From Massalongia carnosa (Eukaryota): a stretch of 64,000 nucleotides of DNA. Position numbers and translations under genes: made by a program. Below, one piece after another: positions 8,336-56,966 of the stretch (positions within the stretch are counted from its first letter, which is position 1; each line of letters starts with the position of its first letter). The notes under the pieces were generated by a model. The model saw only the letters and a list, made by a program, of their open reading frames with translations, searched no databases and was not told where the DNA came from. The stretch covers positions 2,046,001 through 2,110,000 of the forward strand of contig OZ287070.1 in NCBI GenBank assembly GCA_965645245.1, in the 5' to 3' direction.

Positions 8336-10518
8336 GTTAGCCCGAGGGCAAGCTACGGACAGCTGCTGACTGAAAGGAGTTTGAATGCAAGATGGTGAAT
8401 GGATGAAAGGGGATGGGGGATGGGAGATGGGGGAGGATGGAAGGATTACTTTGCAACCGGACAGCCTATGTATATCCATTCCGACGAACAACGGGTCTAG
8501 CAATTCACCCAGGACAAACAAAACGGCCTAACAAAGAGCAAATGACGGGTCTTTTCCCGTAGAATGTCAAAAGGGGGAACCACCCCTCGACGGCTGTGAC
8601 GGAGAAGAGAGAGGCGAAGGCGGTATCGGATCGCCTTGCACGGAATTGGTGCTCTGTAGTTTAAATGCCGTTCCAACGCCATGTGCCACGCCTCGAGGTG
8701 TAAAGAGGAACTGGGACAGTATCCGATTGGATCCGGTGGAGGCTGGAATGTCATTTGATGAATGGACGGTTTTTAAATCCCTCATCCAAGAGCGAGTTGA
8801 TAAGGCTAATCGCAAGTGGACTCGCCACAATGTGTGCGCACATCGTCCAGGATGAACCACGTTGTACAGAGTACACTCACATATTCACACACTTACATAC
8901 TGTGTACTCTGAACACTGCACCTATGCATGCTTCCCATGCTACCCTGCATACCTACCTTTGAGCTTTGGCCAGGGGCGGGCCTGGATGGAACAGGAGATG
9001 GGGCTGTGCAGAGGGAGAAGCTTGGATGACGAAATTCTCCGATCTTTGCGCACTTCGATAACGAGGTTGGGTCGTGGGCTACGTAGGACAGACGTGATCT
9101 CCTAAACGTGATCTCCTACCGAGGTGCCAGATGGCGGTGAGGATGGATGGATGGGGCCAAGCGCGCTCGTGATCAAGACAAGACTCTCATTAACCGCCGC
9201 ATCGGTACGGGAAACATTCTGGACAAGAATGTCCCAACTTGGTTTTCCCGTACCCTGGCGAAGGAGTAAGTCGGAATACACACAGTAGAGTAGGTCAGTG
9301 TAGGTCAGTAGATACGTCGTGGATGTTTTATGCTATGTACGAAGTACATACAACCCATCTGCATGCTCATGTCCTGTGCACAGACCGACCCGATCACACT
9401 TTGCAGGCTCTCAATGCAGGGACCAGGGAACAGAGGCTGAGAACGCAGTCCTGCTACCACCCTACTGCGAATGGGCTTCGCCAACTATAATCGGACCTCC
9501 AGCTTTCGTTGAAAGGTTCAGATTGAAAAGTTCAGACACATGGGAAAAGGCTGGTTTTCATGAGGACTCATCATAAGTGCATACGCTGCCGATAGTTACG
9601 CGGGGACGCCGAGCTAACTACGTTGGCTGTTGTACGAGTACTTAGCTAACTGACCGTCGTATGCGTCTCTCTCCCCCGGACCCACTCCTTATCGAATCCA
9701 GACAAGTAGCAAGAACGAGGTGTGTAGCACAACATGGTAAAGAGTTCACTGGCCGAGGCACGTGCTGTTATCAAGCCAAACGACTTGTCATAATCTAGAA
9801 GGTTAGGTGGATCCAGGAAGTCATAGAGGGTGTAGGGGGAATGGATGGTGATCGTACAACGGCCATGCCGCACCGTACTCCCCTGAATCCTTGAATTGAA
9901 GGGCCATCCACACGCCGATTGACTTCTCCCCTCTGATAGGCGTTCTGGCTTGCGCATCCATCGAGTAACGGAGTGGAAGGACCGTTTTTCCTTGGCGAAA
10001 GGACGGGAATAGCCGGGTCTGCCCAAAAGATCCCGCTAACCCACGGTAGGCGGAGTAGCCGAGAAGCGCATGCCGTCATCATCCCTGCTCAACTGAACCT
10101 TTCGCTGAGATATAGCTGGTCCGTGCGTCTCCTCCAAAACCTTCGCGTCCTCATTTCCAGTTGGACCATTATCGCTTGCCGTGTGGATGACAGATTGTCG
10201 AGCGATTGAATTGAACCTCACTGCCCTGCAATAAAAGAGACAGTTTGAATGATATTGTAGCTGTTATCATTGATTTTGGTGGTGGGTGGGAGGTAGGGGA
10301 AAAAAGAGATGCCTTGGTAAAGCGACTTGGGACGAACAGACATCGCATCCTCGGCGTCACATTGTGGTAGCCTTTATTTCCAGACTCCTGAGTGAAGCAT
10401 CTTACACCTTTCAGTTGTGCTAGCCATCTGGCGAGCCACGTCCACCAGAGCCAAGTTCACCCGCACTTCTACCGTGCCTGCCAGACCCAGCAAACGACCT
10501 CCGACTCACCAGCACCTC

Positions 10519-13500
10519 ATGGCTTCTCAGGCGCGTATGTTACTTGATCCGGCGTCTACTGGGGACAACCTTTCGAAGCAGAAAGCACAGACCATTCGGA
10601 TTGCAAAAGAACAAGAGAAGGCGATTCACGAGAAGCTTGCAAGGAATAACCATCCTATTCCAGAGTATGAGTTCTTGGAGCTAATAGGCAAAGGAGCCTA
10701 TGGTAGGGTTTTTAAAGCGTGAGCGACTTCTTTTCTCGTGTTCTCCGTCGACGGGGTTTGGTATGGTGCTTGTGTTATCGAATCCCTGCGAATCACCAGC
10801 ATGTCGGGTAGGCTGGATGGTCCTGTCAAAACCCCTGCGTAATTTGTCTCCTTTTTAGTCTTGAAGCTTTTTGGCTGATCCTAATCTTTGTGTAGCTGCG
10901 ATTTAAAGAACAGCCGTATCGTTGCGCTTAAAGTTATCGATGTGGACTCCCACGACTATAAAGTGAATGCCCGAGAGAAGGATGATAGTATTGAGGTCAC
11001 AATGCATGAGATCAAGGTCTTGAAGCAGCTAAAGGATAGCAATACCAAGAACGTTAATATCATTTTCGATGCGTTCCAGATACATTCACAACTTTGGATC
11101 GTCAACGAGTATTGTCCAGGGGGGAGTGTACGTACTTTGGTAAGTTAGTGATTCCTGTCTCATTCGTCAGGGTTTCTAAGGTATTGGCTCTCTTGGTTTT
11201 ATTCTACTGTCACTTTTTCTTTTGGTCTACTGCACCCTATCAGAAGAGTGCATCTCGCGGGGTCTGAAGGTCGATGAATGTAAGCAAAGAAGTCTTCAAC
11301 CCTAATGTACTCTACAGTATAGAGAAATTACGACCATTTTGCTGGAACTTCCCGCATCACCAAGCACATATTGATAGTTACACGTCATTTATAGGTATCA
11401 GGCAGGTAGTAAATGGAGTTTGGAGCCAATGGTGTATTAACATACAAAGTAATCATTTTACCTGTCTTTAGTCTGTATCTTGTCGGCGGTTTTTCTCGTT
11501 ATACCTAAACATATGGACTTTGGGAAGCAAAAAGAATGCTAACATATAGTAGATGAGGGGAACAGGCGACAAGCTTGAAGACAAGTACATTGTCCCTATA
11601 GCCCGTGAACTAGCAGTAGCTCTGAAGGCTATACATGATGGAGGTATCATTCATAGAGACGTAAAAGGTAAGCAGCGCTAGCAACATAGATGCAGGGCAC
11701 GAAGCAAACAAATAGGAGATATGAAAACTTAAGACTAACGTAAACTCGTGGGATAGCCGCAAACGTAATGATACACGAGGAAGGGAGGCTTCAAGTAATC
11801 GATTTTGGAGTTGCGGGCGTGTTGCAAACCAGTATCGACAAGCGATCGACTGTTATAGGCACTCCTCATTGGATGGCTCCTGAAATGCACAAGCTTGCAC
11901 CCCCGGAGGGACTAAACTATGGAACAGAGGTCAGTAAAAATACATAGCACGTCTAGACATGCGTCTACTAGGAAAGTTACACCGCTAAGCGGAATAGGTT
12001 GATGTCTGGGCATACGGCTGTACGTTGTATGAAATCGCTACTGGCATGCCCCCGTATCCCAGGACTCAGCCAGGGCGGATGCTTGGTGTGACACTTGGCC
12101 GAAATCCTCCGAGACTCGATAAGACGCAGTATTCAGAGGGATTGAGTGATTTGGTGGCATTCGTATTAGAAACGAAGCCAGCAGATCGTCCCTCGATGCA
12201 AGAAGTTCTGCAGCACCCGTATATCCTAAACACCGAAGAGACCCATCCAACGCAATCGCTTGCCGAACTTGTGAAGGTATATTACCGCTGGGAGCATTCA
12301 GGTGGTCAGCGTCAATCTTTGTTTATCAATGCGGGGGCAGCTGCTGCCGAATTTCCTTCAATTCTCAGCGAAGAGGACGATTGGAACTTTAGTACGACAT
12401 CCAACTTCGAAAAGGAACTAGATCAATTCTCCTTCGAGCCCGATTCAACGGCACTCTTAGAATCTTCAGAGCACGCAGTGGAACTCTCATTTCGGAAGCA
12501 TCCTCATCTTCCCTCCATTGTTATTCCCGGCTATTCTTCAAAGGACCAGGCAGAAATCTCTGATCAGGGTGGTGAAGTTCAGACGCCGACAGGGGATCTC
12601 ACTCCTGCAGAGAAGCTCAACACTGAGGAGCGTGTCAAGCGTGGCGAAAAAGCTTTGAAGGGTTTGTTCAATGAAGGCCAAAGTCCCTACGAGTATAAAG
12701 TCAAAGCAGATTTTGTTGAGCAGAAGTCTGTTCAAAAGCTAGGCCCACTGGGCAAACCGCTTTCTCGTACCCGCTCCGATCTTCCACTTCGAGATGAGTC
12801 GGTGCAGTCGTCGGTTCATCGTAAGGAGCTCGATGCCGATCAACTCCGCTCCGCAAGCTATGATACTACCCCCAACATTGACCTCGCCAACGTTGGCACC
12901 ATTAAGGCGAACCGTATGAACCGTTTTATCGATAACATGGGCCAAGACGACAAGGTCGAGAGCTGCTATTATCGAGACAGTCAAGACGAAGACAAGCGGG
13001 CAACCAAGGAGTGGACCTTCCCGCAGGCCATGTACGACGAAGGTAAAAGTAAGGAAGCAAAATCCTTAACCGTATCTCATGATCCTAAACGGGCAACGAT
13101 TGAGTGGGGGTTCCCACCTGAAATGCAAGCTGGCCGCAATGTTCCGCCGCCAATGTATGAGCGCCCAGCCTTGAAGCATACCGTGACAGCTCCCGTAGGT
13201 GAGATTCGTCACTCAATGGCAGGTATGATCGACCTAGACGCGCTGTATGATAGCGAGCTCTACGACAGTGACATCTTGCGTACTGCACCGGTTTCGGATG
13301 ACGAAGGGGGTACAGGAGCAACTTCCGAGGACGAGGCAATCGATCGTTCCCGCTCAAACAACACGGACGCCCAGGGAGCTAGCGATGGCGATATGATGAC
13401 CCTTCAAGCATCTTCTAGTGCGGGTGAGGATAGCTCTACTTCCCAAACCGCTTCAGCGACGTCCACCGAAGTTCCCTCAGAGATTGGTAACGAGTACGAT

Positions 13501-14262
13501 CCTTTCCTGTTCGACGACTCATCCGACGACGACATCAAAGCGCAGATCAACGCCATGCTGGATGATAGCCAGGTGATGGATGAGATGGATCGTGCGACTC
13601 TCCGCCGTGAATATCTGAAGGCGAGCAAAGCAATGCCAAAGCAACTGAAGGAGGATATGGAAGAGGCAGCCTACCGGCAGTACAAGAAACGACGCTTCGC
13701 CACCGCTGTGGGAAATTATGCGGAGAAGTAAGCGACCCATTTCTCCCATCAAGTCCTCCATTTTCCGAATACTACGATTCATTTAATTTCTCTGCCTTCG
13801 CTTTATACCCGCGCAAGACCTCCACCAGAACACATTTACTAACACCACTCCAGAAATCAAGGCGCGTACCTCTGGGACCAGTACGATCAGGACACCAACC
13901 TAGCCCCGGAAACAAAGCCTTATGCAATGGGTTCGCCCGCCCACCTGGGTGATCCGGACTTCCCTCTAGCCCAGGGCTTTCAAACCGTGTTCGGCCTCGC
14001 CGCTAACGTCAAGCCCGTTGCTTCGGCCGCTGCGCCCTTGTCCTCCGCGATCACGTTTCCACAAATCGTGCCCCCGAGCGCGGAATCTCTGATGGCGGAC
14101 GCCTCGCCCGCGGTTGTGGAAGCGGAGTTGAGGCGCTTGATGGGCGATTGGATCTCTGGGCTAGACGTGTTGGCGGATGTTTTTGATCGGTCACTTGCGA
14201 GTGGAGTTGGGGGACGAGGGGATGGGGATGGGAATGGAGGAGCCTCGGTTGTTGGGGAGTGA
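10519..14262 (+). CDS. STE20/GCK-family serine/threonine kinase (Nak1/Kic1-like), multi-exon
   Basis: LIGKGAYGRVFK, VALKVID, HRDVKAANVMI, DFGVAG, GTPHWMAPE, DVWAYG; long low-complexity C-terminus; introns join ORFs 10417-10722, 10888-11148, 12025-13731 and 13927-14262. Confidence 0.88.
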
Positions 14263-14844
14263 GTAGGGAAGAAGGTCTTGATGCGATGGTGAATGAGGGC
14301 AGATCCTGTGGGTCTGGCGGTGACTTTTTGTTCAAGGAAGCACGGAGTCAGGCTTCGGCATATTTAGGCAAGGTGTTTGCCCCATTTTTTGTCAATTCCA
14401 TGCGTCAACTACTACTGTGCGAGCGTGAATACCCCTGGCTTTTTATCTCTCCAATTTTTTTTTTGCTTTTCTGGATAGCCTTCTAAATAGCAATGGCTAG
14501 AAGCGTCGCCTTCCCCTACTTCAGCCATCCCATTCATCCATCCATCTACCCAAGCCCCACATTCTACTCCTTACAGCCAGCTCCGCCAGCTCCGCTCCCC
14601 AACATCCCCAATATTCCCAACCCCCTTATCGGTACCATACATACGTAACCGATATTGCCCACTTCTCATAGGCCTCGCCTCGCAAAAGATAAGATAAGGC
14701 GACATTGATTCCACGGATAAAGATAAAAACAACCAAGTAGGTAAGCCAGTTAGGTTTTTTTTAATTTTCAACTCAGCCTAGGGGCTTTTCGGTTCGGGGC
14801 TTTTTGCTGGGGAGGTGGGGAAGTGGTTAGTGGGTAGGTGGCTA

Positions 14845-14845
<1 letters not shown>

Positions 14846-14874
<29 letters not shown>
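14846..14874. repeat. (TGA)n microsatellite, about 9 units
   Basis: tgatgatgatgatgatgatgatgatgatg in the kinase/RRN3 intergenic region. Confidence 0.9.
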
Positions 14875-14875
<1 letters not shown>

Positions 14876-15422
14876 GGAGAAGAAGAGTATTAAGGGGGGA
14901 AGAATTGTTTGCAGACGGCGGATATATATATTTTTTTATAATAGAGGGTGGGGGACGGAAGGAAAGAGAGAAAAAGACAAGATCAAAGATCAAAGAGCTG
15001 GCTGGACATATTTCCGGGTCGTTGTCTCTCTTTCTCTCTCTGTATTTCATGCTTTACTCCCAATCCCAGCTTTTACTGGCACAACCATTAAACTCCCGGC
15101 ATTTTCGCTTTCCTTCACTGCGTGGGATCTCAGATAGTACTTTTATTCTTTCAGCCATCTAGATGACTAGTAAGGGGAGGAGGAGCCACCGTATTGAGTG
15201 CCTGCCTCAAACCTTCTTCTGTCTTTCCGCCCATTCGATCGATCGTATCGCCAATGTCATCGCTGATGCTGATACCGATGCTAATGCTGATTCTACCGTT
15301 TCCCTCCTTCCCCTTGTTTATATGATGCTTAGAAGACCCCCTGATAGCGCCGCGCTATAATTACCTGATTGGGAAAGCACCCGGTGCCCCGCTCGGTCCA
15401 TGTTCATAGTCCCGGTCGGAAC

Positions 15423-17507
15423 TCACGACGCATCCGACTCTAATTCCTTCCCATCCTCTTCCTCCTCCTCGTCACTTCCCTCGCTGGCGTCGCTCCCCTC
15501 GCTTCCCTCCTCATCTAGCCCGGGAACCCCAGTCCATTCTCGATAATCCCCGCCAAGCCACCGCTTGCTTAGCGGCAAGTGATATGGATCAAACGGGAAA
15601 AATCCATCAAGCATCTGCAAGCTCTCGCCGTCTCTCCGCGCGCTGAGCGCTGTTTCACGTTCTGGGTGACTATATACTCCCATGGCAGACGACGAAAACG
15701 AAGAGCAGGAAGTGGGTAGGCGTACGCGCTTGTTTGTCTCAATTAAATGGAAGACGAAGATGGCGCCAAGATGGTTAGCGATGCGGGCGAATTCGGTGAC
15801 AATGGCCGGGGCGCAGACACGTAACGGGTTGAGCTTGCTGAAAATATTAGTAGTAAGGATATCCTTAACGCCAGGGCGCCAGCGAGGTTGTTCCTCGTAA
15901 AGGTTTGGTATATCTCCATCGTCTTCGTAATCGGGGGAAGTGGGCGTAGAGGAACGGGAAGAATGAGAGTTGGGGCGGTATTGCAGGTCGCGCCAGCGGA
16001 AGCAGAAGATGTAGAGGAGCGCTTGCACAAGAGAGTAGAAAGTTGCGTAGCGGCGGAGGTCTGGGCCGCGGCAGCCAGGTTCATGGAGGTAGCGAAGACG
16101 TTCTAACTCGGCACCGATATAAGAAAATACGTCACGGACGATGTTAGCAGGCACGTGAGTGCCGCGGGCGACAAAGCTAGCAAGATAGGCGGCCGCGGCT
16201 TGACGGACTATACCGGGCTGGACCGTGTCAAAGGCGATCTGGACGCAGGTACCGACGAAGGTGTCCACGAAGGATGGGGAAAGCTGGGCGAAGTGGAAGA
16301 GTAGGAACTGGGTGTGTCGCGAGCGATAGGTAGGGAGGATGATGGTGACGAACTGGGAAAGGAGGATGTCAAGGGCATTGAAGTGGGTGTCGGTGGATGT
16401 GCCAGTGATGAGTTGGGAGTAGTACGTGAAGAGTAGGTCCAGGATGATATCCATTTTCTCGACATTTCGCATTATGTCTTTAGTGCGCCGAGATTCTTCG
16501 TTCCCTGCATCATCACTAAATACTGATTCATCATCGGTGCTCTCAGAATCATCCATGATATCGGCGAAACCATCGCGTATTTGTGGAATGTCTTGTACAA
16601 GTCCGTCGCCGACGTCTTCGGCAAGATCTTCCAGGTCCACCTGTACCTGCACGTCGATCTTAACAAGGCGCTCCGTGATCAAGGCCAAAACCTCGGCACG
16701 CAACTCAGGGGCGTAAATGAGAATCTTGAGGATATTCTGGACATAGGTGGCATGCGCTCGTTTTGAGTCCGTTTGATGAGGAAAAGTACTGGTAAGAATG
16801 GAGGAAAGGATACTGCTCGCGGAGGGTATCAATTGCAGCAGGTACTGCAATGCTCTATGAACTCGAAGGTACATTTGTGAGCGAGGAACCAACGGACTAT
16901 CGGGGGAACGACCGCTTGAGGGAAAAGCTTGTAAAATATTAGCTTATCCTGTGATTGCAAATTTACCAAACCTACCAGCACTTAGGTTATCCACTAACAT
17001 TCGAAGTACATCTGATAGGAAAGCCCCTTGAGTTGACACTAGATTTGCCAATAAGCGTACGTAGAGCGTAGCATAGTCGTCATTTCGCCCTAGCCATTGA
17101 CTGTTCAAGACCGCATGTACCAAGTCTGCACGAGACCGGTTGAGCAAAGAAACATTTCCCAAAAGCGCCGATGTATGACTTCGCAAAGTAATCGTGCTAG
17201 GCTCATCTTCGAGCTTCCTCTGGACTGCGTAAATCTCCTTAACTTGAGAGTATCCTGAGGTATCCCCAAAAGCTTGCTGCTCCAGAGCACGCCGCACTTC
17301 TTCCTGGATAAGTTTCGGCGCTTTCTCCCAGTCTCCCATTACCCTCACTTCAACATTCGAATCAAAGGTTACCTTTGGTCTTTTTCCTGGGCTTGACGGA
17401 GTGTCATCCTCCGCGTCATTACGTTTTCGAATCAAGGTGGGTTGGCGGAGAAGAGTTTTTGAGACGGGTGTAGGTACAGGCTTTGCGGTTCGCGACAATG
17501 TAGACAT
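15423..17507 (-). CDS. RRN3: RNA polymerase I transcription initiation factor Rrn3 (2 exons)
   Basis: LITERLVKIDVQVQVDLEDL, ILPTYRSRHTQFLLFHFAQ, AAAYLASFVAR, QALLYIFCFRWRDL, LNPLRVC, FPFDPYHLP; one intron near 16927-16976. Confidence 0.93.
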
Positions 17508-17903
17508 TGCGATACTAAATAAGGCAGAACCATATCAAGTGAGGGAACTAGATTCGGGTACGGTTGGGGAGATGGGCTAAAAAACTGTTTTGAATGATAT
17601 GGGGAAATTATTTTATTCGGGTTTGGCAAGGATGGCTAGGGCTAACTAGGTTCAGTGCTAAGCGAAATATCTGTTGATCAAGACTCACCAACGATAACCA
17701 TGCTACGCCAGACACTTACCTTGATGCAAAGTAGATATGCAGTTACACACAGTTATGCGAGCTCCTACATCAATTGAACAATATAGCTACTCGGAGCATC
17801 GACTTATAGCCAAACCATCGTACACAGACCTCGCATCTGAACTTCAAATCACAGCTCTACTAAAAAGTCCTGGTCTTAGCGCTATCGGTATACATGTTAC
17901 ATT

Positions 17904-20900
17904 TCAGAACCCCCTCCCTACCCTAGGTGTCAGTGGTCTCTTGACGGCTCCTTGAGTCGCCATACGCTTGATAGCTGTAGTTGCTGGCCTTGACACCGCC
18001 AGCCTCGGAATGTCTGTAGCCTTGGCAATCCTCTGAGCTTCACGCTCTTTGTCTTCCGCCATCTGAGCCTCAATCTCCATTTTGCGATTGTATTCATGTT
18101 CAGTCACTCGTTTTTCTCGTGCGGAGTACCCCTTCTCTTTGACCGAATAGAAAACGCCACCCAACTCGGCAAGCCACTAAAGATAATGTCAACTAATATG
18201 CAAGGATGAGGAGGGTGAAAGTACATACATGGGGATCAACAGAGGTGACGGTAGACATGTACTCTTTGGAAGTAAGAATGAGCTCATGATATACCACATA
18301 ATCTGGCAGATAGCCGAGTCCGTAGAGCGCGCTTGTCGGATGTAGTTGAATGGTCACACTCGTCCGCAAATTGATGTACTCGCCGATACCTTTGACCTTT
18401 GCAGATTGGTGATAGTAACCTGAACAGATGCACTTTCGAATGACATCCCAGTCGGTGCCACAGCTCGTCAATATCATTTTTTGTACCTTCATAATGTCAT
18501 GCAATTGCTCCCGAATCTCCTTCGCTCGGCGCAGCGCCTTGGGATGAAGGAAGTGTCGAGTGCACCAGCCATCTGAATGGCCATTCGATTTCCATTGAGT
18601 GTATACATGTAAAAGCGTAAGATGATCAGACTCGGGCACAAAGAACTTTTCCCGCGCAGCATCAGATTCTTCTTGTCGTTCCTTTGGTCGATAGAATACG
18701 CTAGGAACGGAGAGCATGGACACAATGGTGAGCATTTCTTCGCTACAGCCATAATCTTCTGAGGTGATAATTAACTTGGCAAGGGACGGGTCCATAGGAA
18801 ATGCGGTCATCTTCTTGCCCATGGGAGTAAGATCTCCGATGTTGTCCAGGGCACCAAGTGCCCAAAGATCAAACAATGAAGTAGTGATTGTATCTTGAGG
18901 CGGTGGGTCCATAAAATCAAAATCTAGTAAATCCCTTACACCCAATGACTTGAGCAGCAGGACAGTGTTCGCAAGATTGGTTCGCTGGATCTCTGGAATG
19001 GTTTGGATATAGAACTCTTCCTTGAAGGCTAGCTCGGTATAGAGGTGAAAGGCTTTGCCCGGACCCGTTCTCCCAGCTCGTCCAGCGCGCTGAGATGCAT
19101 TAGCCTGAGATATAGGAGTGATCTGTAGTGCATCCATTCCCATGCGTGGATTATAGACCTTGAGTTTCGAATAGCCTGCATCAACAACATACATAATTCC
19201 ATCCACTGTCAAACTAGTTTCGGCTATATTTGTGGCTACTATAACTTTGCGAACGCCCGGAGCAGCTTTATCGAATATTTTGGCTTGTAGATCCGCTGGC
19301 ATTTGGCTATAGATGGGAAGAATACTGATCTTAGGTGGATCATTGAGCATCTTCAGTCGTTCTTCAACCAGCTCGCAAGTCACTTCAATATCCTCTTGTC
19401 CCGTCATGAAGACTAAAATATCACCAGCTGGCTGGGAGACATGAATGGCTAATATTTGCTTGACGGCGCTATCCACGTAGTCTTCGCAGGCTGATCGCGA
19501 ATACTGGATGTCAACAGGAAATGTGCGGCCTGGGATTAGAAACTCTGGAGCTCCTCCGTAAAATCTTGAAAATCGCTCAGCATTCATCGTTGCTGAAGTA
19601 ACTATTAGCTTTAAGTCTCGTCTTCGAGCGAGCACCTTCTTGATCAGCCCCATGAGTACATCAGTGTTCAGTGCACGCTCATGAGCTTCGTCCATGATAA
19701 TACATGAGTATTTGTCGAGATCGGGCTCGACAAGCGATTCTCGCAACAATACCCCATCTGTCATATACTTGATAGCTGTTTCCTTGCTGGTGCAGTCTTC
19801 AAACCTGATAGCATAACCCACCAAACCTCCAAGTTTGACTTCCATCTCTTCGCTAACCCGTTTTGCGACGCTCATCGCTGCCACTCGTCGAGGCTGTGTA
19901 CAACCTATTATGCCGTTCTTTGCATAACCATCCTCGTAAAGAAATTGGGTTAACTGGGTAGTTTTACCTGACCCGGTTTGCCCAACAACAATGACCACCT
20001 GGTTGTCACGAATTACTCGTAAAAGTTCTTCCCGAACGGCAAACGCAGGTAGAAATTCTCTTTGCTCGTGTAATGTTTTACTTTTACTGAAAGCACTCTG
20101 CCCTTCATTCTTCTTAAGATGCTCGGCGAACTTGCTACCTGATTTGATCTCATCTTCCCCTGGCGCAGGAGCAGCGCTATCACCATCGTCTTCTTTGACG
20201 CCCATCAGGTTTCCTAATGCCGTTCCTGCCATGTTCGTAGCCTCCTGCGCCTGTTTCTGCCTTTCTTTCTGTTGCCTCCGTTCCTTAACGACTTTGCTAC
20301 CTTTCCGACTGAACACTGCCATGTCACTTTGTGGATCCCGAACGGCAGGGACAGGATCGAGCTGTTTGGTAAATATTTTCCTTCCATCCAAGAATGGTGG
20401 CTTGATATCATGGACCAAAAGATGAACCCGAGTGGCTTCTTCATCGTCGTCAAAATCGGCATCAAAGTCTCTTCGTTGAGCGACACCAGACGTGAGCATC
20501 CTGTTCACTTCCCAAGCGTCCACATCACGCTGTTTCTGTACAGTTTTTGCACTGATCCGCTTGCCATTTTTCTTCTCAGCTAGAGCCACTTCTTTCTGTT
20601 TATCTGCCCAAGATACATCGGTGGAACCAAAGGGATTATGAGACTCATCGCCAAGCGAATATCCAAACTCATCACCAGCATACCAGTCTCGATCTAAGGC
20701 GTTGGATTCCTCCTCACTAACCATTGGTTCAGGCCCTTCGAACTCCTTTTGTTGAGGCATTGATCCATATCGTGATACCTTTGGGGTTGCCGACGCAGAT
20801 AGGCGACCCAAGCTAGTGTTTTGAGGGCGACTATCATGACAAGTCGTGTTGCTTTTGCTATGTAGTGGGGTTTGAGCAGATCGATTAATTCGAGTGGTGG

Positions 20901-52969: not shown

Positions 52970-54064
52970 TCATTCGGTTGCTTCATGATTCTTGCTATCG
53001 TTCTCCATCGCGTCCCGGAAAGACGCCGTTTTGTGCTTTCGTTTTCTCTTTCGCTTTACCAATGGCTTGTGGCTCTCAGTTAAGGGGCCCTCTATTATAT
53101 TTCCTATACTTACTCCAGGTTGAGGCGCCTTACCTTCTATTGCTTTGGGGGGAGCAAGGCCTTCCGGGTTGTCTTCACTTTTGCTGATTCGATCCTCACC
53201 TTCCTTCTCTTTCCGAGATTTCTTGATGCTCAGAGGATTTGGACCCTTTAGGCCACGAGCTCGCTTTTTCTTTGGCAGCTTCTCCTCCCCAACTCCGGCA
53301 TTACCAATCATTTCTTTTGCACCTTGCGTAACGTCCAACTCTTTTTCACTAGAGCCTTCTCTTTTTCGTTTTGCACCAACAGCCTGTGTTCTACCTCTCA
53401 GCCCCGACCTGAATTTCCCCCTTTCTATCCCTTCTCGAACTCCCACGCTGCTATCTGCCATTGGCTCCATAATCATCACACTCCTCTTAACATACACCAG
53501 CGGAACACCTTTGACGCCCCTGCAATATCTTCTGACCTCTTCGTCCTGACTAGCGACTACATAGCAATTCTTATTCGTCTTCGAGTTCTTCGGATCAATC
53601 ACGTTGGATAAGCATTCGAGAGTCGAAAGCGGTTCCTCCAAAGTATGGTGATTGCAGCGCCTCCGTTCCATGCTCCTGGCAACTGCAACAAGGGCATCCT
53701 TCTGAACATGGGAGATTGATGGCATCTTGTAGAGGTGGCGAATGGAGCATTGGGTGATCACTAGTACCAGTATACCTGATCAGCGAATTTCTAGATGTGA
53801 GTTGCAAGTGAAGGCGGGATAGGCGCATACTTGGTTTCACCTTGCCGTGAAGGGTGCGCTCCAGACCGGCCACGAGGCCCATCTTGAAACGATCTGCGTC
53901 TTGTATCATTTGCGCGTCCACTGGGGAAAACAACATAAGCAAGGCGCACAGATTGGATTATCGATAGTAAACCTACCGAGGACCTGATATGGTTCCCGAA
54001 AATTGAAAGTGAGTCCATATTGGCTCATAAGGCGGCGGTACTGTTTTGATCTTTTCCCTCTCAT
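52970..54064 (-). CDS. UTP23: SSU processome PIN-domain protein Utp23
   Basis: MRGKRSKQYRRLM...FREPYQVLVD, MITQCSIRHLY, ERRRCNH, YVVASQD, GVPLVYVKRSVMIMEPM, KGPNPLSIKK. Confidence 0.95.
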
Positions 54065-54257
54065 TTTAAGAATTTAGTGATGGTGATTCCGTACACAATG
54101 ACCTACGTTCAAAGATCAGGTTTAAAGATTCATAAGCTAGAGCTGGGATTTCCTGCTAATTACTCCGTGCCTTGTACTGCGTAGTTAACGCATGTGCTAA
54201 GTGACCGTTTGTAAACAGAGCACTTTGCTTCAGTACCTCGTGGCTCTACGTGCCGTC

Positions 54258-55585
54258 CACGCGGGGGACAAAAAAAAAACTACACCAAAATTTAACCGGG
54301 TTCAACCCCCCACCAAAACACAAGCAATTTCCATACAGTTTTGATGGGATAATCACCATTTCAACAACCAGTCATCCAATTCATTCAATCTATTCAATAA
54401 CCAGTCATTTTACCCTCACCATCCAAAACAGCTCTCAATCTATCTGGCATAGTAGACACCCGTTCATTGATAAATGCCTGGGAAACGTTCGCCCACCCCT
54501 CATAAATTAGCCCCTTGGTCGTATCATCATCCCAATGAGGATATTTTTTTAAATATTGCTTCGGGGCCTGCCAGCAATTTTCTATGGGGGCCAAATCAGG
54601 TGAACATGGACAGTTGAAATAGTGCTTCAGATCGTTGTTCTGCTTCCAAGTGCGTACAATGTTTGATTTGCCTGGTCCATGTCCAGAATCACCGTCTTCT
54701 TCTAAGACGAAATCGTGTTTTGCTTCAATCCAGGGCTTCACAATAGGCTCCAATATAGAGTCGATATAGACTCGTTGACTCATCTTTCCATTGGAGTTTC
54801 CAGGAACTCTGTAAAAGTAGATATCTGACTTGAAGTCATGACCTGCAGCAGCCCAACAGTGATGTCTCTTCTTGACGGCCTCGTCTGGTTCATCTGCTTC
54901 TTGAATACAATCATGACAATAACGTTCACCTAATCTTCGTATGATGCGTAATTTGCCCTGAGGTCCCCATCCAAAGTGCACTTCGTCACTAAATCGAACT
55001 TGTTTCCAGTCTTCTGCATTTGGATATCTAGAAAGCATAGCATCTGACCACTTCATACGAAGCTTTCTTGTCTTCTCGTTCACCCATCCCTTTCTGCACG
55101 CAATGCATTTGTGATAATCCATGGTGCCCATGATTCGTTGAATGGTTTTGCCACTGCAGTCTAGGCCTACTTCGAAGCCCAATTGCTCCCATGTAAGAGC
55201 GCGCGCCTCCATACCTTCTTCTTCCAATAGCCGTTCCATTTCTCTAATCAATTTAGGCGTAACAATTTTGTGACGCCCACGAACTTCAGAAACATCGGAA
55301 TTATTATGATGACGGCGTGATGAGGCTCCTTCACGCAGGTATGCATAGCCCCTCGTACGTTCCACATCAAATGTGCGAATAACATCCTCTTTGTGATAGG
55401 AAATGCCTTGCTTTTCGCAAAATTCAACGGCTCCCTGAATTTTAGCTTTGGTAGGAGTCTCGATATGTTTAGAATTCATAATAATGATAATTATCCCATC
55501 AAAATCGTATGTAAATTGCTTGTGTTTTGGTGGGGAGTTGAGCCCGGTTAAATTTTGGTGTAGTTTTTTTTTTGTCCCCCGCGTG
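54258..55585 (-). mobile_element. Intact Tc1/IS630-like DNA transposon, 1328 bp, ~103-bp TIRs, flanked by 5-bp direct repeat CCGTC
   Basis: TIRs at 54258-54360 and 55483-55585 (first 43 bp identical, 7 mismatches in 103), starting CACGCGGGGGACAAAAAAAAAAC; CCGTC at 54253-54257 and 55586-55590. Confidence 0.95.
54394..55479 (-). CDS. Tc1-like DDE transposase, DD37E, 361 aa, intronless and uninterrupted
   Basis: WKQVRFSDEVHF (D1), LEEDGDSGH (D2), SPDLAPIENCW (E, with 37 residues between D2 and E); N-terminal HTH-like region with a GRHK linker. Confidence 0.93.
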   Translation of the reverse strand: MNSKHIETPTKAKIQGAVEFCEKQGISYHKEDVIRTFDVERTRGYAYLREGASSRRHHNNSDVSEVRGRHKIVTPKLIREMERLLEEEGMEARALTWEQLGFEVGLDCSGKTIQRIMGTMDYHKCIACRKGWVNEKTRKLRMKWSDAMLSRYPNAEDWKQVRFSDEVHFGWGPQGKLRIIRRLGERYCHDCIQEADEPDEAVKKRHHCWAAAGHDFKSDIYFYRVPGNSNGKMSQRVYIDSILEPIVKPWIEAKHDFVLEEDGDSGHGPGKSNIVRTWKQNNDLKHYFNCPCSPDLAPIENCWQAPKQYLKKYPHWDDDTTKGLIYEGWANVSQAFINERVSTMPDRLRAVLDGEGKMTGY

Positions 55586-56966
55586 CCGTCTAAGCTCCTT
55601 CGGATTAGCGTTCTTGCTGACTAACATTGCTGAAATAGCACTAGCTGCGTAGTTAGCCTATTAACCCGAAGGGGCTTAACGTTCTTTAAGGCTAATCCAA
55701 AGGGGGTTAGTTAGGCACGTCTAAGGCAATAGAGCACTCCCTGCATTGTTCGCTACCTCCCCTGACGCAAGGAGATAACTGTAAGGTAGATCAACAAAAG
55801 AGTTGTGCAGATCAAAGTCTATTTCTTTATTTTAGGATGCATACAGAGTAATAAGACGCGAATCCACCACAATCTTTGGCCTTATCTGATTCTGGTAACC
55901 CAGCAAAGTTAAACCCCAAACAGAATATTGAATCTCTGCAATGCCAATCATGAAGGTTAAACTAAATTCGAGATCGATCCATAGCGAGGAAGCGAAAATA
56001 AAGGTATTTGGTACTTTTACTTTCGATGTATCAAAAGTTATTATGAATGGAGTTTTGCTCTCCGAATCTACCCTAGGTTGTTCCTAAAGCTCGAAGATTT
56101 CGGTTAAATTGAGATTTGAGGTATTGCTTGATCGGGGCTCGACGCAATGCTGAAGTAAGTAATTTGTGGAATGGAGTTCTCTATGAATAGAGGCATGATT
56201 GATAATGAGCTGAATAGCTCAACTTAAATTACTGGAGGAATCTCTTTCCCGCGCAAGGTTGCCTTGATAAGCTCGAAGCATCTTCCTAGACAACTCTTAG
56301 AGCCAGCGTGGGCGGACTGCTAATGCCACCACAACTTCCAGTGTTGCTATCCGGCAGATTTTTCACGCAGGTTCCCGTTTGCAGTGTGACAATGATCCGA
56401 TCACACATTATCTCCATGGATAAAGCGTTCTTCTCTTATAGAGCGGCTTACCGAAGATGACTGCAGTTGATTTGTATCTAAGTTTCCAAGGTTTTAGATG
56501 GTGCCTTAATACCGCCAATAAGTATTTGGAGATAAGAATCTCCTTTTCGCTGTTAGAGCGGCTCGGTAGATTAGAGAAAGCATCCACGACTTGTTTCTTC
56601 CTGTGCTGTTGTTCTGGAACCAAAGACGATAGTTTTCTTTCCGGCATGATGTATACTTTTGATTGTCAAAAAATGAGACAGATAGACGCATAATGACCGT
56701 TCCTTCTACATATGCCTTATGTGCATCGGCCGTCGGAAATGAATGGCTATTCGCGCTGATTCCTCTAGTAGTGTGGCTCCTCCGGGCAATGATCCTTTGT
56801 TGTGCATATTCTGTACAACGCAGGCACTAAATTAGGTATAGGCAAAGCAACTTCTCGTTCTCGAAGGCGAGTCTGTAAGATTATCTGTTGCTGAAACCCA
56901 GGAAGCTCTTTGAGGCAGCAGTAGAGAACAGCATGAAAATGTTGCTAGCTGCGTCCCCCAGCCGAT

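Follow-up and report, generated by a model that had tools for sequence, protein, structure and literature searches.

A transposon with CACGCGG tips lies between exact 5-bp repeats

The stretch of Massalongia carnosa contig OZ287070.1 analyzed here (64 kb; positions 2,046,001 to 2,110,000 of the forward strand) is referred to below as the window, and all coordinates are window positions. It contains a 1,328-bp transposon, at 54258-55585, whose single open reading frame (ORF) encodes a transposase related to those of Tc1 and IS630 elements. The tips of the element are CACGCGG...CCGCGTG, no TA touches either tip, and an exact CCGTC adjoins both of them. The sequence across the left junction is ...GTGCCGTC/CACGCGGGGGAC(A)10C..., and that across the right junction is ...G(T)10GTCCCCCGCGTG/CCGTCTAAG, where the slash marks the border of the element and GTCCCCCGCGTG is the right tip after ten T. 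The arms of the terminal inverted repeat (TIR) are 103 nt long with 93% complementarity, the first 43 nt being perfect. Element, ends and CCGTC repeats are thus confirmed as observations. The 20-nt tip occurs twice in the window, both times at the element ends, compared to 0.01 occurrences expected from shuffles, and no further copy or derivative was found within the window by blastn, tblastn or a motif scan.

A repeat search returned a 9-nt direct repeat, CGTGCCGTC, at 54249-54257 and 55582-55590. Since the right-hand CGTG of this repeat is the TIR end itself, the duplicated target is the 5-mer; a 9-bp duplication was rejected because the ends would become asymmetric by 4 nt, and a duplication of 5 bp is the sole reading that leaves the ends of the window element symmetric. 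An exact 5-mer repeat at a fixed junction is expected by chance about once in 1,024 cases.

The transposase is related to Tc1 and IS630 enzymes

The ORF is on the minus strand (54394-55479) and encodes an intact protein of 361 residues without stops. We noted the motifs FSDE, EDGDSGH and LAPIE and the catalytic residues D165, D262 and E300, with 37 residues between the last two (DD37E). The Pfam model DDE_3 matched the protein with E 8.7e-8 (32.6 bits versus a cut-off of 28.6), and the NCBIfam IS630 model matched with E 1.1e-8, a score well under the cut-off of that model, which is no surprise for a relative from a eukaryote. Among 30 aligned relatives (alignment A1), in which HTH_Tnp_Tc3_2 matches were counted at E up to 1, DDE_3 was present in all 30 and HTH_Tnp_Tc3_2 in 20 (best 3e-10), with no match to mariner or pogo Pfam models. 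The D, D and E are kept in 26 of these relatives, and the spacing between the last D and the E is 37 in 20 of them, 38 in eight, and 39 and 40 in one each.

The structural comparisons point the same way. A search of the PDB with the A1 profile (E up to 0.01) returned one distinct sequence, the catalytic domain of Sleeping Beauty (SB100X; E 3e-16), with whose triad D165, D262 and E300 align, three extra residues lying between D262 and E300. An AlphaFold (AF2) model of the protein has a predicted local distance difference test score (pLDDT) of 74.5 and is helical over residues 10-118. When this model was compared to known structures with Foldseek, all 15 listed matches with E <1e-3 were Mos1, Sleeping Beauty or SETMAR, the top ones having E values of 8e-10 to 8e-6 and TM scores to the target of 0.74-0.81 for the catalytic domains. 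Neighbors in the ESM Atlas were DDE_3/HTH_Tnp_Tc3_2 clusters. We found no Pfam match to RAG1 or Transib in the window protein or the 30 relatives, and no such chain among the Foldseek matches listed.

We also noted two conserved features that are candidates for a role in a changed stagger, a pair of CxxC motifs and an RGR motif. Both CxxC pairs (125/128 and 188/191) occur together in 23 of the 30 relatives and are located in the linker and in the loop that follows the first catalytic D, which we take to be the counterpart of the Mos1 clamp loop; the pLDDT is below 50 in both regions. The pairs may form a zinc site, which would have no counterpart in the aligned stretch of Sleeping Beauty. The RGR motif is found in 26 of the 30 relatives.

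Similar proteins are abundant in ascomycetes. A homologue search gave 418 matches with E up to 0.001 among 2,211 candidates, the named sources being Bimuria, Clathrospora, Pyrenophora, Macroventuria, Ophiobolus, Rutstroemia, Botrytis and Colletotrichum. Clustered at 50% identity, the representatives number 440 at E up to 1e-30, 3,774 at E up to 1e-10 and 13,639 at E up to 1e-3.

A related element has a different 5-bp repeat, and no junction seen has TA at the tip

A metagenome scan yielded seven loci (L001-L007), of which L001 alone is complete. L001, on an unrelated metagenome contig, encodes a protein that shares 54% identity with the window protein. Its TIRs (63 nt, 97%) begin with CACGCGGGCG followed by nine A, carry the same CACGCGG tips as the window element, and are flanked on both sides by CTTAT, a repeat of exactly 5 nt and no longer. 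The TIRs of the two elements align over ~70 nt, with CACCAAAAT(T/C)T as a common motif. The joint chance of two different exact 5-bp repeats, as seen for the window element and L001, is ~1e-6. The L001 ORF (1411-2562) is free of frameshifts and has five in-frame stops, of which at least three coincide with W or R codons in the window protein; the pattern resembles decay of the repeat-induced point mutation type (C:G to T:A) in a copy whose TIRs and duplication are still intact. Loci L002-L004 represent one 5´-truncated copy without a TIR pair, for which the remaining end (in L003) reads CCGCGTA followed by CCTGC, and L005-L007 were set aside as unrelated (42% identity over 47 residues). Scans of viral contigs by tip, degenerate tip and protein profile found nothing related; L018 is a chance match with 68% GC and no transposase. 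A scan of prokaryote genomes recovered only IS630-like genes of 25-39% identity.

Additional junctions were obtained from gene calls that begin in the flank and read across the tip into the transposase. In one frame, the tip translates as HAG and then K-rich residues (KK), in the window element and L001 alike. The residues that precede the tip are ...LAW in P0053/P0058, ...RG in P0066, ...RT in P0015 and ...GH in P0241, giving flank bases TGG, GGN, ACN and CAY, respectively, while P0100 crosses the tip in another frame (...KY, then S-R-G; flank bases TAY-T). No gene calls crossing the left end of the element were found. Overall, TA adjoins the tip at 0 of 10 junctions from eight insertions (two ends each for the window element and L001, one for L003 and five from gene calls); a canonical Tc1 family would have TA at all ten.

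Some of the gene calls have unusual structures. The relative in P0053/P0058, which is 66% identical to the window protein, is nested within the C-terminal portion of another transposase ORF, which is Tc1-like and DD34E, and one gene call spans both nested transposases. Given that the P0053 and P0058 clusters have 9 and 35 member sequences, the nested composite is multi-copy or widespread. P0241 looks like an internal-deletion derivative, with a tip-coded leader fused to the middle of the transposase, and P0160 has an internal duplication of its own N-terminal part.

A previous sequence-only reading of this stretch had described the exact CCGTC on both sides, the lack of TA, the 43-nt perfect TIR ends and the intact ORF, all of which are as stated, and had assigned the transposase to the Tc1/IS630-like, DD37E group, in agreement with the Pfam and Foldseek matches, the PDB profile match and the triad alignment. 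Its proposal that a lineage had changed its target is strengthened by CTTAT on both sides of L001 and by the absence of TA from the junctions of other copies, which make a 5-bp duplication without TA a trait of the lineage rather than of a single copy. The description of the duplication as GC-rich fails for CTTAT.

Copies and flanks of the element in four sequencing runs

We compared the element with four sequencing runs (X4, X7, X8 and X9), labelled as four organisms from four studies, of which X4 matches the window flanks without mismatch. Two X4 contigs that cover 54333-54647 (315 nt) and 54618-55531 (914 nt) and differ from the window by one and three letters have depths of 5,968 and 5,811, compared to 144-147 for the flanks. 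This ratio suggests ~40 near-identical copies in X4, with the caveat that k-mer depth is not equal to copy number; the 90% cluster of the window protein has 42 member sequences. Since the family is multi-copy and nearly uniform in one run, it was amplified recently. All four runs have the same majority letters at 54338, 55283, 55380 and 55399, and the window copy therefore is a minor variant. It differs from the majority by I34 for F (55380), V66 for A (55283) and one synonymous change, and judging from these substitutions its own enzyme may be impaired or weakened, its ends being perfect. Thus, of the earlier suggestion that the element is young or active, youth agrees with a k-mer depth ~40 times that of the flanks, whereas activity argued from the intact ORF is qualified by I34.

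The element is also present, at a level of at least 99% and with the same majority letters, in the runs labelled as three other organisms, which come from three other studies. In these runs the left flank is absent and the right flank nearly so (X7 depth 0.4-3.6 over 55612-55850). The occurrence of the element in runs of other organisms could reflect the same or a sister species, shared lichen partners or horizontal transfer.

The contig ends also bear on whether the flanking 5-mer is target sequence. The X4 left flank is part of a unique 16.6-kb contig (depth 144) that ends at 54285. With a contig k-mer length that we take to be k=31, on which the estimates of shared flank depend, only the last two flank bases are common to other copies. 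Two X7 contigs depart from the right end at 55587, and their sequences disagree with one another (agreement 0.57) as well as with the window. The X4 left contig and the divergent X7 contigs speak against a constant 5-mer.

A 5-bp stagger compared to other explanations

What was observed directly comprises how the element is built, the homology and fold of its transposase, a 5-bp duplication at each of two diverged elements, and a lack of TA at every junction seen. On this basis, we consider it likely that the element is an autonomous cut-and-paste transposon of IS630/Tc1 (DDE_3) stock, of a lineage that makes a 5-bp stagger at targets that do not need TA. The elements are best read as members of a widespread ascomycete lineage that is Tc1/IS630-like by its transposase and departs from the TA rule.

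The closest competitor is a 4-bp duplication with an extra terminal C at one end, such that the element would have the asymmetric ends CACGCGG...CCGCGTGC. It draws on the base after ...CGCGTG. In the window, L001 and the putative end in L003 this base is C, as it is in one X8 contig ending at 55586 and in both X7 contigs that depart at 55587. Under this model, a C would precede the left 4-mer of both complete copies by a coincidence of ~1 in 16. However, the C-bearing end is the ORF-near (right) one in the window, whereas in L001, whose ORF starts near its left end, it is the ORF-far one, and an extra base fixed to one end could not change ends between two relatives. The other ORF-near junctions have T (L001, P0100) or C/T (P0241) as the neighboring base, and hence not always G on that strand. 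In addition, unequal cleavage distances would be odd for tips identical over 43 nt. We regard this explanation as improbable; judging from the few sites available, a symmetric complex that weakly favors half-sites with C first or G last would fit better than 4 bp plus C. The 5-mers could instead be part of each family's element, as terminal direct repeats outside the TIR, given that one complete copy per family was seen and that an X4 contig starting at 55564 would allow eight shared flank bases. This is very unlikely in view of the X4 left contig, which limits the shared flank to two bases at most, the pair of X7 contigs that depart after 55587, the junctions of related families, which all differ, and the fit of one 5-mer into the inverted end of a host repeat after in silico excision (see below).

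Another explanation holds that the ends and the duplication belong to a CACTA/Transib-type superfamily moved in trans, the Tc1-like gene being a passenger. CAC...GTG tips with a 5-bp duplication are typical of that group, for which excerpts of PMC12730594 give 5´-CA..TG-3´ termini and target-site duplications of 2-5 bp. But the CACGCGG tip is linked to the transposase in members of 50-66% identity, ~40-160 nt upstream of the ATG, the window and L001 TIRs diverged together with their proteins, the element is only 1.3 kb with a single ORF, and no RAG1-like or Transib-like protein or fold was found with Pfam or Foldseek, which together make a passenger gene highly improbable. An ordinary TA-duplicating Tc1 element with misread boundaries and chance 5-bp repeats is less plausible still. 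In the window, TA occurs 9 nt outside the left tip and 5 nt outside the right tip; these sites were rejected as the target, since the inverted repeat stops exactly at CACGCGG, short of them. Chance would also have to supply two independent exact 5-mers and a family without TA at any junction seen. We consider misread boundaries exceedingly unlikely.

Several points weigh against a 5-bp stagger in a Tc1-like lineage. Only two elements, one from each diverged family, were seen with both of their flanks, and the six extra junctions are one-sided, five of them being deduced from protein with degenerate codon positions. The flank repeat in the window extends 4 nt (CGTG, 54249-54252) past the 5-mer, which is either a 1-in-256 coincidence or something not understood. 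The unique right contig in X4 has its start at 55564, precisely where the T10 tract begins; taken at face value with k=31, this means that another locus shares eight flank bases, for which our guess is heterogeneity in T-tract length at the locus. No empty-site allele or excision joint was found in the four runs and no contig spans the element, though a gap in contig coverage proves nothing, and with 14 of 39 loose contig ends listed in the runs and 89 contig pieces outside the listing, flanks were seen for a minority of copies. As for the protein, HTH_Tnp_Tc3_2 matched with E 1.1e-5 and 26.1 bits, under the gathering score of 31.5, and F34 is nearly invariant in relatives, yet the window copy has I34.

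The CGTG extension is absent from L001; it may be a coincidence or a hint that tip-like targets are favored.

A proposed mechanism of transposition

For a lineage with a 5-bp stagger, we propose that the N-terminal, putative paired-like helix-turn-helix (HTH) region and the RGR (AT-hook-like) motif would bind the sub-terminal CACCAAAAT(T/C)T and the A-tract beside the CACGCGG tip, and that a dimer would bring both ends together. The D165/D262/E300 site would then cut at the CAC...GTG tips and join the 3´ ends to target phosphates 5 bp apart, with gap repair giving the 5-bp duplication. There might be a weak half-site preference for C as the first or G as the last base of the duplication. All of these steps are inferred.

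More tentatively, the whole widespread ascomycete clade (the 440 representatives at 50% identity and E up to 1e-30) may have given up TA and moved from a 2-bp to a 5-bp stagger by way of the CxxC...CxxC pair, possibly zinc-binding, which would re-space the active sites of the dimer, and may be active now in a lichen-associated fungus. We see this wider scenario as a serious possibility that falls somewhat short of being favored.

The insertion site is a repeat upstream of a UTP23/Fcf1-like gene

The element is inserted in a host repeat of ~140 bp (ACGTGCC...GGCACGT) resembling a miniature inverted-repeat transposable element (MITE), which it splits into two parts (Table 1). The summed X4 depth over the longer part is 8,571-18,586, compared to ~146 for unique flank, while the left flank of the site is at single-copy depth. 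Upon in silico removal of the element and one CCGTC, an imperfect inverted end of ~34 nt that begins with ACGTGCC becomes visible; if both 5-mers are kept, the outer 7 nt fall out of the best inverted-end alignment. The earlier claim that the reconstructed empty site restores a MITE terminus is therefore supported in part, by this imperfect end. Host repeat contigs in X4 include structural variants with joints 55611>55671 and 55709>55662, and if the ends of the repeat are read as CGTGCC...GGCACG, it has TCTA flanks on both sides.

The neighboring gene, on the minus strand, has a main exon (52970-53725) that matches Fcf1 (Pfam, E 5.6e-22) and a UTP23 sensor motif, and an apparent first exon at 53906-54064. 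As the MITE and the transposon are ~190 bp upstream of this UTP23/Fcf1-like start exon, they may affect its promoter.

Table 1. Features of the element and its insertion site (window positions).
Feature	Position	Strand	Remarks
Outer 10 nt of the split MITE-like host repeat	54248..54257		Begins ACGTGCC; inverted end visible only after in silico excision
Left target-site duplication, CCGTC	54253..54257		Identical to 55586-55590
Whole element, 1,328 bp	54258..55585	-	Sense strand of the transposase is minus
Left TIR, ORF-far end, tip CACGCGGGGGAC(A)10	54258..54360	+	103 nt, 93%; aligns with the L001 TIR
Transposase ORF, 361 aa	54394..55479	-	D165/D262/E300 (DD37E), RGR 67-69, CxxC 125/128 and 188/191
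Right TIR, ORF-near end	55483..55585	-	106-nt leader from tip to ATG, open in the ORF frame
Right target-site duplication, CCGTC	55586..55590		Identical to the left copy
Rest of the MITE-like host repeat	55591..55720		Ends GGCACGT; high depth; from the excision alignment

Comparison with known transposon systems

The D-E spacing of the window transposase is that of the DD37E groups TRT, Mosquito, L18 and impala, though equal spacing alone is no proof of kinship. The impala element of Fusarium oxysporum has a TA duplication and short TIRs (~27 bp), whereas the element described here has a 5-bp non-TA duplication, TIRs of 63-103 nt and CACGCGG tips. The two are alike in being fungal, ~1.3 kb long and DD37E, with a single intron-less ORF between TIRs; impala, compared here by description, is listed as DD37E in excerpts of Dupeyron et al. 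(2020, PMC7325037) and would be a putative relative at most. Excerpts of the same source give TA as a hallmark shared by IS630, Tc1, mariner and pogo. With no TA at its tips, the window element is a relative of this group by its transposase and not a canonical Tc1/mariner element.

Tc1 and Sleeping Beauty (DD34E) have the same fold as the window transposase, in which a putative paired-like HTH likewise precedes DDE_3, and the tips begin with CA in both cases. CA(G/C) tips are ordinary in Tc1 elements. The element here differs from Sleeping Beauty in the CxxC motifs of the linker and of the loop after the first D, the 5-bp duplication and the lack of a TA requirement, although rare non-TA insertions have reportedly been seen for Sleeping Beauty. 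Further exceptions to the TA rule are Tc4/Tc5 (TNA), the ciliate TBE elements and Zator (3 bp). Zator, which combines its 3-bp duplication with a TP36-like transposase and was compared by description only, differs from the element here in that the duplication is 5 bp and the Pfam and NCBIfam matches are to DDE_3 and IS630.

There are precedents for altered duplication lengths. Fungal Fot elements of the pogo type duplicate TAA and TAAA according to excerpts of Gao et al. (2020, PMC7386202), a change within the fungal IS630-Tc1-mariner group itself; however, these words still contain TA and the transposase is of the pogo DDxD type, unlike CCGTC/CTTAT and the DDE_3/Tc1-type enzyme. A departure of the same kind, but in an unrelated transposase superfamily, is that of hAT5, hAT6 and hAT7, which duplicate 5, 6 and 7 bp versus 8 within hAT (excerpts of PMC12730594).

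The sequence-only reading had also proposed convergence on Transib/RAG ends, a likeness that we find to be superficial. It is confined to CAC tips and a duplication of length five. The window element and its relatives lack a RAG1-core-like transposase, the duplication is not consistently GC-rich, and the ends have no CACAGTG-type heptamer, 12/23-nt spacer or nonamer, the A-tract coming 3 nt (window) or 4 nt (L001) after CACGCGG. In the literature searched, we found no Tc1-type element with a 5-bp sequence-free duplication; Repbase and Dfam were outside this search, such that prior cataloguing is possible. Excerpts of PMC9977792, PMC11544213, PMC3017866 and PMC5751038 describe no such element, and the name 'TcMar-Sagan' appeared in the literature searched only in annotation tables of six papers.

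Implications

The TA, or 2-bp, duplication is regarded as the defining trait that IS630, Tc1, mariner and pogo have in common (PMC7325037, in excerpt), and a Tc1-like lineage with a 5-bp duplication departs from it. Annotation pipelines for transposable elements that require TA will put the boundaries of an abundant fungal family in the wrong place or assign it to the wrong class. Enzymes with TA/2-bp and 5-bp duplications also make up a natural pair that shares one fold, with which the determinants of target choice and stagger could be examined. If active, the element would offer a compact 1.3-kb transposon tool that is not bound to TA sites. Were the clade-wide scenario true, these ascomycete elements would be a natural Tc1-like system without the TA constraint and a direct handle on the stagger of DDE transposases.

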